This document shows positions 1 through 4,189 of a DNA stretch of 4,189 bases, in pieces; within the stretch, counting starts at the first letter, position 1; every line of letters begins with the position of its first letter. The translations under genes and the position numbers were made by a program. This DNA is from a virus. Taxonomy: Duplodnaviria > Heunggongvirae > Uroviricota > Caudoviricetes. Under the pieces are notes generated by a model, which saw only the letters and a program-made list of their open reading frames with translations, ran no database searches and was not told where the DNA came from. The stretch lies in the IMG/VR virus record IMGVR_UViG_2663762627_000001, positions 1 through 4,189 of that record; one strand, written 5' to 3'.

Positions 1-231
1 GCCTTTGAGGTCGTGGTATGGATGACGGATGGCTGGCCGCTGTATGAATCCCGCCTGAAGGGAAAGCTGCACGTAATCAGCAAGCGTTACACTCAGCGCA
101 TTGAGCGACATAACCTGAATCTGAGACAACATCTGGCAAGGCTGGGACGGAAGTCACTGTCGTTCTCAAAATCGGTGGAGCTGCATGACAAAGTCATCGG
201 GCATTATCTGAACATAAAACACTATCAGTAA
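1..231 (+). CDS. insB: IS1 transposase InsB, C-terminal portion (5'-partial; stop TAA at 229-231)
   Basis: In-frame translation from position 1; the ORF track entry 13..231 begins at an internal GTG. Protein-level recognition of the InsB C-terminus. Confidence 0.9.
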
Positions 232-246
232 GTTGGAGTCATTACC
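224..246. repeat. IS1 terminal inverted repeat (outer end at about 246)
   Basis: The 23 bp atcagtaagttggagtcattacc is the reverse complement of the IS1 terminal repeat GGTAATGACTCCAACTTATTGAT as recalled, with one mismatch. Confidence 0.75.
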
Positions 247-433
247 AGCCATATGTTTTGCGCATGACAGCCAGGAAGACCAGAAGCTGGTGCTGTGTTA
301 ATCCGGCCAGCATTACAGCTTCCAGCAACTCATTTGCAATGCGCGTATAACCATCATCGAGATCTGCCACGCGCGGCTCCTTTTGTGCCATATCCGGCAC
401 TGGAAAATTGAATATCTCAGCAGTGTTTGCCAT
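242..433 (-). pseudogene. Replication initiator O-like gene, N-terminal fragment only, interrupted by IS1
   Basis: The minus-strand product MANTAEIFNFPVPDMAQKEPRVADLDDGYTRIANELLEAVMLAGLTQHQLLVFLAVMRKTYGW aligns with the N-terminus of lambda O (…VADLDDGYARLSNMLLEA…LLAILRKTYGW, from memory). The frame stops at a TAA (242-244) lying inside the IS1 terminal repeat, directly after the W codon (245-247). Start assigned to the ATG at 433-431, which sits 4 nt after a GGGAGG ribosome-binding site; the ORF track's longer form starts at 523. Confidence 0.8.
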
Positions 434-519
434 AATTCCTCCCGCAATGAGTGCGTTACGATTTGCACCTGAAAGTCGGTTCTGTTCCCGCAGACCGGCT
501 TTCGCCATTTCTGAACCTG

Positions 520-1059
520 TCATATTGCCCCCAGCATGGTGGTAACCATCGCCATCAATGGACCAGCCAGATCAGGATCCACACGAAACATCGACACAAT
601 GCCTTCACTCATCTCCTTCAGTTTCTGGTGGCGTGGTGCGTTGAGAATGACCGCCTGTTTTGCCTCGCTGAGCTCCTTTTCCATTTCAACCAGTCGAGCC
701 ATGAAGCTATCCTGCTCAACCAGGTGGCCGCGATATTTCAGCGGTAGTACTGCCAGAATTGCTGGAGTCAGTTCACGCACGTTATTTCGGTATTTTTCAG
801 AATCGAATTTGTTATCGAGAAAGCGGAACAGCTTCTGGCGTGCACGACTGACATCATCAGGAAAATCGATAGTGCCGCCGCCCTGTGCTCGATACTCATT
901 CACAATGAGTGCGGCAACGACATCCTGATTATCTACAGCCGACCAGGCGCGGACGGCATCACGGATTTTTTCGTGGCCTGGCACCTGTTTTATTTGAGAA
1001 CGATTTATCACCGCAGTCGGGATAAATCCGCTAGTCTGTTGGTATGTAATTGGTTGCAT
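520..1059 (-). CDS. CII-position regulatory protein, probably YdaT-family (179 aa from the ATG at 1059; the ORF track's 190-aa form starts at 1092)
   Basis: Long minus-strand ORF directly downstream of cro and upstream of the O-like gene. The ATG at 1059-1057 has an AAGGA ribosome-binding site 9 nt upstream; the ATG at 1092 has none. Motifs EYRAQGGG and LTPAILAVLP are reminiscent of YdaT-family proteins (family assignment from memory, not verified). Its stop overlaps the upstream in-frame ATG of the O frame in an ATGA arrangement (520-523). Confidence 0.6.
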   Translation of the reverse strand: MQPITYQQTSGFIPTAVINRSQIKQVPGHEKIRDAVRAWSAVDNQDVVAALIVNEYRAQGGGTIDFPDDVSRARQKLFRFLDNKFDSEKYRNNVRELTPAILAVLPLKYRGHLVEQDSFMARLVEMEKELSEAKQAVILNAPRHQKLKEMSEGIVSMFRVDPDLAGPLMAMVTTMLGAI

Positions 1060-1082
1060 AATTGATTCCTTTAGTCTGAATT

Positions 1083-1128
1083 GACTGTTCATCAGTCTGT
1101 TAAGTTGATTGCTTATTGTTAAAGAACG
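1083..1128 (-). promoter_or_regulatory. Candidate nutR-like site: boxA-like element plus a small hairpin, between cro and the CII-position gene
   Basis: Minus strand 1128->1115 reads CGTTCTTTAACAAT, one mismatch from the rrn/lambdoid boxA core (T/C)GCTCTTTAACAA as I recall it. 17 nt further downstream, GACTG-ATGAA-CAGTC (1097->1083) forms a 5-bp stem with a 5-nt loop, the same geometry as boxB. Position matches lambda nutR. Confidence 0.35.
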
Positions 1129-1140
1129 TGAAAAGGAAAT

Positions 1141-1371
1141 TTAAGCTGCATTCTTTTCGGTATGTGGAAACAACTTCGGAAGATCCGGGCGAATCTGGTA
1201 TGCCTTAACTACCCCGCCAGTAGCCGTAACAATGCTGCCGACATGTTCAGGGGATACCTTTGCTTTGTTGTGTAGCCACTTATAGACGGCCTGCTGTGAA
1301 ACTTCGCAGGCATCGCCCAGTTTCTTTTGTGAACCGACGATATTGATCGCGGTTTTGATTGCTGGGTTCAT
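1141..1371 (-). CDS. cro: Cro-like HTH repressor (76 aa)
   Basis: Minus-strand ORF divergent from the repressor gene, with a GGAGG ribosome-binding site 5 nt upstream of the ATG (1371-1369). The product MNPAIKTAINIVGSQKKLGDACEVSQQAVYKWLHNKAKV…VKAYQIRPDLPKLFPHTEK has the same pattern as lambda Cro (…[20 protein letters not shown]…VYAEEVKPFPSNKK). Confidence 0.85.
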   Translation of the reverse strand: MNPAIKTAINIVGSQKKLGDACEVSQQAVYKWLHNKAKVSPEHVGSIVTATGGVVKAYQIRPDLPKLFPHTEKNAA

Positions 1372-1398
1372 AACAACCTCCGTGGTTAACTTGAATTA

Positions 1399-1470
1399 AG
1401 ATTAAAACCATGGTTGTTTTTAGTCAACAACCATTTTCGTTTGATGAAATAAAACCTTGGTTGTACATTT
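1399..1470. promoter_or_regulatory. OR-like divergent control region with three operator candidates and PR-like/PRM-like promoters
   Basis: Two perfect 10-bp palindromes, AACCATGGTT (1406-1415) and AACCTTGGTT (1453-1462), flank a half-site-only copy AACCATTTTC (1429-1438); centre spacing is 23 and 24 bp. Minus-strand TTGACT (1427-1422) followed by an AT-rich -10 candidate TAATCT (1404-1399) would drive cro. Plus-strand TTGATG (1441-1446), a 17-bp spacer and TACATT (1464-1469) would place a transcription start at about the cI ATG, giving a leaderless message as at lambda PRM. Confidence 0.5.
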
Positions 1471-1475
1471 GGTCT

Positions 1476-2165
1476 ATGAAAACAACACTCTCAGAAAGAC
1501 TTAAAGAAGCCAGATTAGCGCGAGGCCTTACACAAAAGGCGCTTGGGGATATGGTCGGGGTTAGCCAGGCTGCCATTCAGAAAATCGAAACAGGGAAAGC
1601 TAACCAAACAACTAAAATCGTGGAGATCGCAAACGCTTTAGGTGTGCGCGCAGAATGGTTATCTTCTGGCGTTGGAAATATGTCAGACAGTACCGTGCAA
1701 CCAATACAATCAACTGTCAGCCATTCAAAATACTTCAAGATTGACGTTCTTGATATAGAAGTCAGTGCCGGACCGGGTGTCATCAACCGTGAGTTTGTGG
1801 AAGTTCTACGCTCGGTTGAGTACTCGTTTGACGATGCTCGTCACATGTTCGATGGCAGGAAGGCGGAAAATATCCGCATCATTAACGTGCGCGGTGACAG
1901 CATGTCAGGGACGATCGAACCAGGTGACCTGCTGTTCGTTGATATCACTGTTAAATCTTTCGACGGTGATGGCATCTATGCGTTTCTGTACGACGACACT
2001 GCCCATGTAAAACGTCTTCAAATGATGAAGGATAAGCTGCTGGTTATCTCTGATAACAAGAGCTACTCGCCGTGGGACCCGATCGAGAAAGACGAGATGA
2101 ACCGGGTGTTCATATTCGGTAAGGTCATTGGAAGCATGCCGCAGACGTACAGGAAGCATGGTTAA
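1476..2165 (+). CDS. cI: CI-like prophage repressor (N-terminal HTH, C-terminal S24/LexA-type autoprotease domain), 229 aa
   Basis: The HTH segment LSERLKEARLARGLTQKALGDMVGVSQAAIQKIETGK begins right after the ATG at 1476. The C-terminal half carries a candidate Ala-Gly cleavage site (VSAGPG), the catalytic serine motif GDSM and the lysine motif HVKRL. The ORF track's upstream start at 1410 would run through the operators, so 1476 is preferred. Stop TAA at 2163-2165. Confidence 0.9.
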   Translation: MKTTLSERLKEARLARGLTQKALGDMVGVSQAAIQKIETGKANQTTKIVEIANALGVRAEWLSSGVGNMSDSTVQPIQSTVSHSKYFKIDVLDIEVSAGPGVINREFVEVLRSVEYSFDDARHMFDGRKAENIRIINVRGDSMSGTIEPGDLLFVDITVKSFDGDGIYAFLYDDTAHVKRLQMMKDKLLVISDNKSYSPWDPIEKDEMNRVFIFGKVIGSMPQTYRKHG

Positions 2166-2340
2166 TTTATCTACGACTTAAGGGAGCGAAGGTTAAGGTT
2201 TATACCACTCGGATTAGATATTGCACTAAATTCTCTATAAGAACGCCAAATCTGTTTGCATATTTCAGTAAATATTCTCGTTGTTAGCTGAAATTTGTTG
2301 CTACTGTCAGCAAAATGTCCCCCTATCTCGTAGCGGTTTT

Positions 2341-2386
2341 TATTTCGAATCATTATGTTAAGATGTTTCTGATTATAATGAATGGA
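2341..2386 (+). promoter_or_regulatory. Candidate promoter for the lipoprotein gene
   Basis: Perfect TATAAT at 2374-2379 with TG at 2370-2371, 16 bp upstream of the ATG at 2395, in an AT-rich intergenic tract. No good -35 hexamer; the leader would be very short. Confidence 0.3.
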
Positions 2387-2394
2387 AACATAAA

Positions 2395-2775
2395 ATGAGA
2401 AAAATCCTAATCGCTGCCATGATGGCATCTCTATTGGCTGGGTGTGCTTCTTCAGGCAACCAGCAACTCAAAAATGAAACTGAAATTAGTGTCCAGTCTA
2501 AACTTCAGGAAGGTAAAACAACCAAGAATGAGGTTAAATCTTACTTTGGTTCTCCTGATGCTGTTTCATATACTGACAGTGGAAACGAGATCTGGAAGTA
2601 CGCCTTTGCAAAAGTAAAAGTTAATGGCACCACTTTTATTCCATTCTATGGATTATTCCATAATGGAACGAACGGTACGAAAAAAGAACTTACTATTCTT
2701 TTTAACGATGACACGATTAAGAAATACACAATGTCAGAAACCCAAATAAACTCGAAATCAGGTTGGGCTGACTGA
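2395..2775 (+). CDS. Outer-membrane lipoprotein of unknown function (126 aa), in the rexAB-equivalent slot; fold possibly BamE/SmpA-OmlA-like
   Basis: Signal peptide MRKILIAAMMASLLAG followed by lipobox LAGC; the residue after the Cys is Ala, consistent with outer-membrane sorting. Mature region has a pattern resembling BamE: GKTTKNEV…FGSPD…EIWKY…ELTILFNDD versus BamE GMTQQQV…LGTP…NTWFY…TLTLTFNSS. Codon usage is clearly more AT-rich than flanking genes, and the gene has its own terminator. Confidence 0.85.
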   Translation: MRKILIAAMMASLLAGCASSGNQQLKNETEISVQSKLQEGKTTKNEVKSYFGSPDAVSYTDSGNEIWKYAFAKVKVNGTTFIPFYGLFHNGTNGTKKELTILFNDDTIKKYTMSETQINSKSGWAD

Positions 2776-2783
2776 TAATCATA

Positions 2784-2810
2784 CCCGGCAACCGCGCCGG
2801 GTTTTCTTTT
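2784..2810 (+). terminator. Rho-independent terminator after the lipoprotein gene
   Basis: Stem CCCGGC (2784-2789) / GCCGGG (2796-2801) with loop AACCGC, followed by TTTTCTTTT (2802-2810). Confidence 0.8.
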
Positions 2811-2904
2811 CCTCCCCCTCATAACTCATACCGTCCAAAAAACCACCACACCTCACTTCAGTTATCGCTATGCGATGCAAGTCACAAAATAAATCCATCC
2901 TAAA

Positions 2905-2985
2905 TACAACCAGTTATATTTAAAACAACCGACAAAACAACTTTTGTTGTTGACGATAAAACAACTATAGTTTTAAATAAATTCA
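2905..2985 (+). promoter_or_regulatory. pL/OL-like region: candidate promoter and repeated operator-like motifs
   Basis: TTGACG (2950-2955), a 17-bp spacer, then TTAAAT (2973-2978). The ACAACC-type motif seen in OR recurs here: TACAACCA (2905-2912), AAAACAACC (2922-2930), the inverted repeat AACAAC-TTTT-GTTGTT (2936-2951) overlapping the -35, and AAAACAAC (2958-2965). Confidence 0.4.
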
Positions 2986-3034
2986 TCGCAACGACACAAC
3001 GATACGGTAACCACCTGTTTCACCGTTGCGATGA
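2983..3034. repeat. Perfect 11-bp inverted repeat with a 30-bp spacer in the pL leader
   Basis: TCATCGCAACG (2983-2993) and its exact reverse complement CGTTGCGATGA (3024-3034), immediately downstream of the candidate pL -10. Confidence 0.7.
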
Positions 3035-3255
3035 CCGCTTAGATCCGCAGTTTGAATTTCAGCAGGCTTCGGGGAGTGCGAGGGGTGAAACGGACGCGTG
3101 AACGTCGGTGTGACCAGCTGAAATCAACACAACACTTTATACCTCAGTCGCTTCAACGAGGCGGCTTAGTTATGACAACCGGCGGCCATCCACCGCCTGA
3201 ATACGCGCAGAAGTCTCTATATGTTCAGCAGCCCAGCTTACGGGCAGGAGTTTTT

Positions 3256-3462
3256 ATGGTTCATCAACATTACGGAACGCAGACCGTTAATCGCGGCGCG
3301 GTCATGCCAGGAATGCTGGTCAAACACAAAGATGGTACCTGGACTGCATCAGCTAATTTACGCGGGCGGCTTTATCTGCATCGCGGCATCGAGCGCACTT
3401 ATACCCGTGATTTGCTCGTAGAAGTTTTTCTCGACGGACGCGGTAACGGCCTGAATCACTAA
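3256..3462 (+). CDS. Hypothetical small protein (68 aa) in the N/kil position upstream of gam; may be the C-terminal part of a longer ORF
   Basis: ATG at 3256 has an AGGAG ribosome-binding site 5 nt upstream; stop TAA at 3460-3462. The same open frame extends upstream to a TTG at 3052, with a GTG at 3085 (GGGGAG 8 nt upstream) and an ATG at 3172 (GAGG upstream). Product MVHQHYGTQTVNRGAVMPGMLVKHKDGTWTASANLRGRLYLHRGIERTYTRDLLVEVFLDGRGNGLNH has no family I can recognise. Confidence 0.45.
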   Translation: MVHQHYGTQTVNRGAVMPGMLVKHKDGTWTASANLRGRLYLHRGIERTYTRDLLVEVFLDGRGNGLNH

Positions 3463-3538
3463 CCCCCCTTTCCTGTTTTCCTAATCAGCCTGGCATTTCG
3501 CGGGCGATATTTTCACAGCCATTTTCAGGAGTTCAGCC

Positions 3539-3835
3539 ATGAACGCTTATTACATTCAGGATCGTCTTGAGGCTCAGAGCTGGGCGCGTCACTACCAGCA
3601 GATCGCCCGTGAAGAGAAAGAGGCAGAACTGGCAGACGACATGGAAAAAGGCCTGCCCCAGCATTTGTTTGAATCGCTCTGCATCGATCATTTACAACGC
3701 TGCGGGGCCAGCAAAAAAGCCATTACCCGTGCATTTGATGACGATGTTGAGTTTCAGGAGCGCATGGCAGAACACATCCGGTACATGGTTGAAACCATTG
3801 CTCACCATCAGGTTGATATTGATTCAGAGGTATAA
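3539..3835 (+). CDS. gam: Gam, host RecBCD nuclease inhibitor (98-aa GamS form)
   Basis: Product [98 protein letters not shown] is near-identical to lambda Gam as recalled. AGGAG ribosome-binding site 8 nt upstream; stop TAA at 3833-3835. Confidence 0.95.
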
Positions 3836-3840
3836 AACGG

Positions 3841-4189
3841 ATGAGTACAGCACTCGCAACGCTGGCTGGGAAGCTGGCTGAACGTGTCGGCATGGATTCT
3901 GTCGACCCACAGGAACTGATCACCACTCTTCGCCAGACGGCATTTAAAGGTGATGCCAGCGATGCGCAGTTCATCGCATTGTTGATCGTCGCCAACCAGT
4001 ACGGCCTTAATCCGTGGACGAAAGAAATTTACGCCTTCCCTGACAAGCAGAACGGCATCGTTCCGGTGGTGGGCGTTGATGGCTGGTCCCGCATCATCAA
4101 TGAAAACCAGCAGTTTGATGGCATGGACTTTGAGCAGGACAATGAATCCTGCACATGCCGGATTTACCGCAAGGACCGTAATCATCCGA
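3841..4189 (+). CDS. bet: Bet (Red-beta) single-strand annealing recombinase, N-terminal 116 codons (3'-partial at window end)
   Basis: Product MSTALATLAGKLAERVGMDSVDPQELITTLRQTAFKGDASDAQFIALLIVANQYGLNPWTKEIYAFPDKQNGIVPVVGVDGWSRIINENQQFDGMDFEQDNESCTCRIYRKDRNHP matches lambda Bet as recalled; GAGG 10 nt upstream of the ATG. Confidence 0.95.
   Translation, partial: MSTALATLAGKLAERVGMDSVDPQELITTLRQTAFKGDASDAQFIALLIVANQYGLNPWTKEIYAFPDKQNGIVPVVGVDGWSRIINENQQFDGMDFEQDNESCTCRIYRKDRNHP

Follow-up and report, generated by a model that had tools for sequence, protein, structure and literature searches.

The described regulatory system nearest to the one reported here is that of phage 434. Its right and left operator regions (OR and OL) each hold three 14-bp sites with the reference operator ACAAT-N4-ATTGT; conservation covers the outer 4+4 bases and protein contacts reach the outer 5+5, leaving the central 4 without contact (PMC1636474). 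A second precedent is the repressor of phage 933W, which carries a 434-like helix-turn-helix (HTH) domain and was modelled on the 434 complex; its K46 specifies C:G at position 5 through guanine O6, and its sites, 15 bp long around a central base pair, carry G:C at position 2, binding being reported as non-cooperative (PMC3317979). We analysed a 4,189-nucleotide stretch of Caudoviricetes DNA (positions 1 to 4,189 of IMG/VR record IMGVR_UViG_2663762627_000001; hereafter the window), which is the immunity region of a lambdoid prophage. Comparison of its repressor, operator-like sites and relatives indicates that it very probably encodes a 434-type switch with its own operator specificity, in which one repressor acts at both early promoters.

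The likeness to 434 extends to proteins, sites and layout. The window repressor has homologous HTH N-terminal and S24 C-terminal domains; its putative operators are 14 bp long with outer ACAA...TTGT bases and a variable 4-bp centre; and three of them lie between the divergent cI and cro genes, overlapping the proposed promoters pR and pRM. According to the curated genome record of 434, the OR operators begin at 2908/2930/2953 and the OL operators at 4136/4113/4082, which gives spacings of 22/23 and 23/31 bp, compared with 23/24 bp (OR) and 24/31 bp (OL, the 31 bp being measured to a half-site) in the window. The two systems differ at operator position 5, which is C:G in the window (ACAAC) and mostly T:A in 434 (ACAAT), and in helix 3 of the repressor (SQAAIQK in the window, TQQSIEQ in 434). 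A reciprocal search with the 5+5 consensus sequences of the window and of 434 gave no cross-match at ≤1 mismatch. Given that operator and recognition-helix residues differ, the window phage appears to lie outside the 434 immunity group. Further differences are a Cro of the YdaS/P22_Cro type instead of a 434-Cro-like protein, a cI mRNA predicted to be leaderless where that of 434 has an 18-nt leader with a ribosome-binding site, a candidate OL3 that is a half-site only, a YdaT-family protein in the cII position, and the lack of an N gene downstream of pL.

A 14-bp inverted repeat shared by OR and OL

The two genes that flank OR are:

1141-1371, minus strand: Cro-like gene, 76 aa, with a YdaS/P22_Cro-type HTH
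1476-2165, plus strand: cI-type repressor gene, 229 aa, with an HTH N-terminal domain and an S24 autocleavage C-terminal domain

The initial annotation of this DNA had proposed an ACAACC-type motif shared by OR and the pL region. Indeed, ACAACC occurs 8 times on both strands of the window against 2.12 expected, a count of at least 8 being reached in none of 200 shuffles, and the shared motif is thus real and non-random. Two of the copies (2518 and 3175) are background, and the other six fall within the two regulatory regions:

1373-1378, plus strand: ACAACC
1412-1417, minus strand: ACAACC
1427-1432, plus strand: ACAACC
1459-1464, minus strand: ACAACC
2906-2911, plus strand: ACAACC
2925-2930, plus strand: ACAACC, an extra half-site 12 bp upstream of the start of OL2

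ACAACC is the half-site of a larger element. The repeating unit is a 14-bp inverted repeat, ACAAC-N4-GTTGT, and it takes the place of the heptamer previously regarded as the unit. At ≤1 mismatch it has 5 matches in the window against 0.14 expected, and 0/200 shuffles reach 5; once ≤2 mismatches are allowed, OR2 joins the set. A repeat finder used with no preset pattern showed 1402-1420 (OR1) to be 89% complementary over 19 nt to 2958-2976 (OL1), and returned OL2 and OL1 as a direct repeat at 24 bp and OR1 and OR3 as a direct repeat at 47 bp; it revealed no other repeated motif common to OR and OL. The sites, with mismatches to the 14-mer, are:

1404-1417: OR1, AAAACCATGGTTGT, in the pR spacer between -35 and -10, 1 mismatch
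1427-1440: OR2, ACAACCATTTTCGT, between the pR -35 and the pRM -35, 2 mismatches
1451-1464: OR3, AAAACCTTGGTTGT, in the pRM spacer, 1 mismatch
2961-2974: OL1, ACAACTATAGTTTT, in the pL spacer, flanked by TTGACG and the -10, 1 mismatch
2937-2950: OL2, ACAACTTTTGTTGT, perfect consensus with 0 mismatches, its last T being the first base of the pL -35
2906-2919: candidate OL3, ACAACCAGTTATAT, left half-site only, starting 31 bp from OL2
1373-1386: doubtful fourth OR site, ACAACCTCCGTGGT, over the cro Shine-Dalgarno sequence, starting 31 bp from OR1, 1 mismatch

With starts at 1404, 1427 and 1451, the three OR sites are spaced 23 and 24 bp apart, and both this spacing and the OR coordinates had been given correctly. 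The core AACC(A/T)(T/G)GGTT on which these sites were said to be built is present at AACCATGGTT (1406-1415) and AACCTTGGTT (1453-1462) and absent from the middle site (1427-1440). On the pL side, the four reported motif copies are found at 2906, 2925, 2937 and 2961, although those at 2937 and 2961 read ACAACT, and their starts lie 19, 12 and 24 bp apart, not the 17-18 bp initially described. Because the 14-mer places OL2 at 2937-2950 and OL1 at 2961-2974, the pL register is settled at 24 bp, like that of OR.

Position matrices for the operator sites were built from 21 loci. Across the 21 relatives the outer 5+5 bases of OR1 are invariant around a YATR centre, and OR3, in most cases a perfect ACAAC-N4-GTTGT, keeps its outer bases invariant while its centre varies freely. 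OR2 combines a perfect left half with a right half that is degenerate in a conserved manner: TTCGT recurs in relatives, and the block TAGTCAACAACCATTTTCGTTTG is unchanged between Escherichia coli and Klebsiella phages. ACAAC-N4-GTTTT occupies the OL1 position in 27/27 aligned OL regions, and the GTTGTTGAC junction of OL2 and pL is kept in most relatives. OR1 and OL1 are near-identical inverted copies, each placed between a TTGAC -35 and a -10.

We downgraded 1373-1386 as a true fourth operator because its position 12 is unconstrained and its centre coincides with the Shine-Dalgarno sequence CCTCC. The site recurs in 17/21 relatives with A/C/G/T = 4/4/4/9 at position 12, a position that is fixed in the true operators; its operator status is doubtful.

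While OL1 and OL2 are clear, a third OL operator is represented by a conserved half-site at the offset of 434 OL3 (31 bp). ACAACC stands at this offset in 8 loci, that of the Klebsiella phage included, and the right half is not conserved; the half-site at 2925-2930 reads ACAGCC in the Klebsiella phage. Upstream of OL2 in 30 loci, 44 copies of ACAAC were counted vs 2 of GTTGT (shuffles, 8.2 ± 2.9), and the distances of these half-sites to the OL2 start cluster at 12/22/31/42 bp, a period of about 10 bp. The window half-sites at 2906 and 2925 belong to the same-orientation class, none of which has a conserved partner half. Such half-sites may stand in weakly for OL3 or serve as a phased platform for recruitment. 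That the half-sites at 2906, 2925 and maybe 1373 recruit extra repressor subunits onto one helix face is a rather unlikely extension of this idea; if true, an extended polar oligomer or looping platform would replace the canonical OL3, and the mechanism would be distinct from that of lambda and 434, whose arrays consist of three discrete dimers.

Three promoters are proposed around these sites:

1399-1427, minus strand: putative pR, TTGACT (1427 to 1422), 17-nt spacer, TAATCT (1404 to 1399)
1441-1469, plus strand: putative pRM, TTGATG (1441-1446), 17-nt spacer, TACATT (1464-1469)
2950-2979, plus strand: putative pL, TTGACG (2950-2955), 18-nt spacer, TAAATA (2974-2979)

OR1 and OL1 fill the spacers of pR and pL, respectively, OR3 lies within that of pRM, and OL2 abuts the pL -35. 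The pR sequence is homologous to that of pL (TTGAC, operator, TTTTAA(A)T). TTGAC is found at the pL position in 27/27 aligned relatives, and the position of TTGAC and of a -10-like element relative to the operators is held in the 27 diverged OL regions as well as in the OR alignments. Likewise, relatives keep the pRM elements TTGAT(G/A) and TA(C/A)ATT, at an unchanged distance from the cI ATG, and a putative pL is annotated at the corresponding position of phage HK639. The predicted pRM start coincides with the first base of the cI ATG (1476), and the cI mRNA is therefore predicted to be leaderless. All cI homologues start with MKTTL at this position (229 aa); the mechanical open reading frame and the annotations of PhiR34_1 and PhiR5_1 begin cI at ATG 1410 (251 aa), inside OR1.

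Repressor helix 3 and the distribution of sites among relatives

Pfam assigns HTH_3 (2.5e-13) and Peptidase_S24 (1.2e-18) to the repressor, and its best PDB matches are the 434 repressor (1per/2or1, E 3e-9) and 434 Cro (2e-7). Aligned with full-length 434 cI (29% identity over 205 aa), it keeps the Ala-Gly cleavage site (VSAG/VRAG), GDSM/GDSM and the Lys motif VKRL/FKKL in register. Its helix 3, SQAAIQKIE (residues 30-38), departs from 434 at the residues aligned with 434 Q29, S30 and Q33. Base contacts in the 434 complex are reportedly made by Gln28, Gln29 and Gln33. As repressor Lys36 aligns with 434 Gln33 and K46 of 933W offers a precedent, Lys36 is a plausible reader of the C:G pair at operator position 5. 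The Cro-like protein matches Pfam YdaS_toxin (6.6e-17) and P22_Cro (7e-5) and the Xylella Cro-like structure 3bd1 (E 0.0055), and its gene is annotated as Cro in the PhiR phages.

The initial annotation had suggested a motif search across related prophages, and here the sites do recur at OR and OL in a manner that tracks repressor helix 3. The sample comprised 57 chromosomal loci encoding relatives of the repressor N-terminal domain; sites were counted at ≤1 mismatch, with OR taken as the 150 bp preceding cI. Loci with the helix-3 sequence SQAAIQKIE number 32 and contain 66 sites upstream of cI and 60 elsewhere in 355 kb, and nearly all of the latter form the pair ACAAC-N4-GTTGT / ACAAC-N4-GTTTT, 24 bp apart, 0.9-3.3 kb downstream of the cI start. 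By contrast, the 23 loci with another helix 3 (mostly AQPTIWRL) have 0 sites upstream of cI and 4 elsewhere in 249 kb. Across these 55 loci, then, the putative operators co-vary with repressor helix 3. Helix and sites are also both present in UPF_BP1 (Salmonella, P22-like), PSTCR7lys (Providencia) and phiEt88 (Erwinia). The five sites persist, with their spacings, in PhiR26_1, PhiR34_1, PhiR5_1 and the Klebsiella phage ST101-KPC2phi6.1 (~76% identical), and the cargo between cI and pL varies: PhiR34_1 has nothing there, PhiR5_1 a HipA-like pair and the Klebsiella phage rexAB. The comparative pattern is uniform despite diverged flanks.

A natural exchange in PhiR30_1 outlines the immunity cassette. 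This phage shares cI from codon ~45 on (homology from window position 1609) and is near-identical to the window at 2782-2897 and from ~2985, in the pL leader; it is unrelated across cro, OR, cI codons 1-44 and the following block:

2898-2984: immunity-specific OL/pL block of a mosaic cassette, 88 bp

The blocks found instead in PhiR30_1 contain repeats of the CAATAGC type, at OR as well as at OL, and leader homology with heteroimmune phages starts at 2985/2986. Since the exchange removes an 88-bp block that holds every pL-side motif, this block is part of the immunity cassette.

A further 14-mer was noted inside cI at 1608-1621 (ACAACTAAAATCGT, 2 mismatches), in the codons for QTTKIV. Pectobacterium prophages have ACAACCAAAATTGT (1 mismatch) at the same +132 position within cI, and the 14-mer coincides with the mosaic junction at which PhiR30_1 cI homology starts (1609). 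Coincidence in the coding sequence could account for it, as could a conserved patch prone to recombination.

A proposed 434-type switch and its alternatives

By analogy with 434, we propose that a cI dimer binds the 14-bp ACAAC-N4-GTTGT, the outer 5+5 bp being read directly and the central 4 tuning affinity. Occupancy of OR1 would block pR and occupancy of OR3 would block pRM, whereas OR2, a conserved weak site, would probably need cooperativity; as it adjoins the pRM -35, repressor bound there could activate pRM. On the other side, occupancy of OL1 and OL2 would block pL, and a weak third OL site may be contributed by the same-orientation half-sites, among them 2906, which stands at the offset of 434 OL3. 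Cro would be expected on the same sites, and prophage induction would follow from RecA-stimulated cleavage at Ala-Gly within VSAG. The binding and immunity specificity proposed in this scheme are supported in silico, by sequence and by comparison, as is the earlier suggestion that OR and pL are served by one non-lambda repressor. Four independent lines support that suggestion: OR1 and OL1 as near-identical inverted copies, the persistence of sites and spacing in relatives with diverged flanks and cargo, the co-variation with helix 3 together with the PhiR30_1 exchange, and the 14-bp format of 434 together with a DNA-binding domain closest to the 434 repressor. The window system represents a new specificity class inside the well-understood 434-type lambdoid switch and no new kind of mechanism.

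Several observations weigh against this scheme. A consensus promoter scan of the window with a threshold of 9/12 left pR, pRM and pL uncalled, each scoring ≤8/12, so that these promoters are inferred from conservation and position only. The best-matching OR site in most relatives is OR3, not OR1, and the pattern therefore fits poorly with a simple OR1 > OR2 > OR3 order of affinity. The candidate OL3 is, as described, a half-site only. Two Dichelobacter nodosus loci (L140 and L141) encode KSQAAIQKIE and have no site at ≤1 mismatch in 12 kb; the rest of the domain is only ~40% identical, and both break the rule that links helix and operator. Phylogenetic relatedness among the comparative loci means that their counts are not independent events. 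Finally, cro is exchanged together with the cI N-terminus in PhiR30_1, and the sites cannot be separated there by protein.

This last point bears on the reading in which the motifs are sites for Cro only, or for another protein of the cassette, and cI recognises something else. Because cro and the cI N-terminus move together, the PhiR30_1 exchange, in which cro co-segregates with OR, OL and the cI N-terminus, cannot distinguish cI sites from Cro sites. In very distant loci, from Pectobacterium, Providencia, Erwinia and a Rhizobiaceae metagenome-assembled genome, the sites follow cI helix 3 and the cro-side architecture differs. Moreover, OR and OL share no second repeated motif, and the 14-bp ACAA...TTGT format fits the 434 repressor, a homologue of cI, whereas the Cro of the window comes from the unrelated YdaS/P22_Cro family. 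We consider an assignment to Cro or to another protein very improbable.

The half-sites could also be read in the other register, GTTGT-N9/10-ACAAC, with a repressor bridging neighbouring operators. A terminator scan of both strands did detect a 25-bp inverted repeat with a 9-bp stem at 1410-1434 (ATGGTTGTT-N7-AACAACCAT), and a similar arrangement, GTTGTTGACGATAAAACAAC, is found at pL. However, the gap in this register is inconsistent (N9 at OR, N10 at pL), whereas that of ACAAC-N4-GTTGT is constant at all sites and in every relative. Lone 14-mers also occur without a partner, for example OR3 alone in Pectobacterium loci and in the Rhizobiaceae locus L139, and the homologous 434 repressor binds 14-mers with exactly the geometry of the N4 register. 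Bridging in the alternative register is accordingly hard to credit. The hairpin at 1410-1434 is explained by the right half of OR1 and the left half of OR2 being inverted copies, and it was rejected as a terminator or RNA element, as it lies upstream of both proposed transcription starts.

Least of all can recurrence be put down to compositional or functional coincidence in A/C-rich promoter DNA, ribosome-binding sites and -10-like elements, a view whose probability is close to nil: the copy at 1373 does hold the cro Shine-Dalgarno sequence, at OR1 and OL1 the GTTTT half runs into the -10 sequence TTTTAA(A)T, and the copies at 2518 and 3175 are plain background, but no shuffle reaches the observed counts, centre bases vary while outer bases are fixed, the operator co-varies with the helix, and the motif is missing from heteroimmune relatives that have the same backbone.

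Immunity specificity, occurrence and neighbouring genes

With cI as the probable reader of the 14-mer, the window can be placed among other lambdoid systems. It shares with lambda the divergent cI and cro genes, a tripartite OR with ~23-24 bp spacing, an OL that overlaps pL, a cI mRNA that is probably leaderless, and gam-bet located downstream of pL. It differs in operator length (14 bp compared with 17 bp in lambda), and its operator consensus is presumably unrelated to that of lambda. On account of the 14-bp sites and of the nearest structure being 434, not lambda cI, the window appears to fall outside the lambda immunity group.

Phage HK639 and the Stx1 phage PA28 have a repressor N-terminal domain 56-59% identical to that of the window and the same layout: relative to the cI ATG, three OR sites stand at -74/-49/-25, and the two OL sites are spaced at 25 bp. 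Their operators differ, being of the form ATAAC-N4-GTTAT, with T instead of C at position 2, and their helix 3 is SQPAIQKM compared with SQAAIQKI. No cross-matches were found between the HK639/PA28 consensus and that of the window, and the A/P difference at residue 32 tracks the C/T difference at position 2 between the two classes. The operators of this sister class, ATAAC-N4-GTTAT, are located at:

HK639 (L145): 3921-3984 and 6528-6592
PA28 (L144): 3921-3983 and 5172-5210

As proposed for Lys36 of the window, 933W uses a recognition-helix Lys for C:G at position 5. In contrast to the 933W sites, those of the window have an even length of 14 bp, another outer sequence and C or A at position 2, and the window switch does not appear to be of the 933W type.

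The operators add a third specificity to a simple natural series, with ACAAT in 434, ACAAC in the window phage and ATAAC in HK639 and the Stx1 phages, whose differences map to helix 3 (Q/A/P at 434 residue 29 and Q/K at residue 33). Rules of HTH recognition could be tested on this compact set of natural variants, from which orthogonal repressor/operator pairs could also be taken. The operator definition would also make homo- and hetero-immunity predictable from sequence.

Very common in E. coli, the cro-OR-cI(N-terminal) cassette (query 1141-1608) was found in 1,524/5,426 complete E. coli genomes (28%), including HUSEC2011, and the OL block (query 2898-2984) in 1,016/5,426; in ~500 genomes the cro-OR-cI part occurs without an OL block matching at megablast sensitivity. 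The cassette is also present in the isolated phages PhiR26_1, PhiR34_1, PhiR5_1, PhiR47_2, Turner and IdasGreatGrand. Records of these phages annotate cI and Cro and not the operators, and no description of these operators was found in the searchable literature.

Beyond cI and cro, the window contains the following features:

1-231: C-terminus of an IS1 transposase (Pfam PF03400)
242-523, minus strand: replication-protein-O gene, cut after 43 of 95 Pfam profile positions
520-1092, minus strand: YdaT-family protein in the cII position, 190 aa (Pfam YdaT_toxin; phrog_163, CII-like activator)
2395-2775: BamE-like lipoprotein gene in the rex position between cI and pL (phrog_3135; Pfam BamE just under the cut-off)
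2783-2802: terminator of the BamE-like lipoprotein gene
ending at 3462: Rac-type kil
3539-3835: gam
3841 onwards: bet, start only

The isolated phage PhiR26_1, with 98.3% identity across window positions 1100-3100, is annotated with the same gene arrangement and has an intact O gene of 1,020 bp. As the O gene of the window is truncated and abuts the IS1 transposase C-terminus, this prophage copy is probably replication-defective. A search of the window for the published YdaT site TTGATT-N6-AATCAA gave no convincing match, the best having 2-3 mismatches, near chance.

The pL leader (2983-3171), ~190 nt up to the Rac-type kil, has neither an N gene nor a boxA. No Rfam match was obtained at E ≤ 1 anywhere in the window, this leader included, and no similarity to the annotated putL-like RNA of HK639 was detected past the first ~20 nt (folding z of only -2.0), a result that speaks neither for nor against a put-type RNA in the leader. 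The leader opens with a hairpin whose 11-bp outer stem pairs 2983-2993 with 3024-3034, and it is ~95% common to the heteroimmune phages 4A7, Perceval and PhiR30_1; a boxA-like sequence, GCTCTTTAACAA, is present in the relatives L101, L106 and L109.

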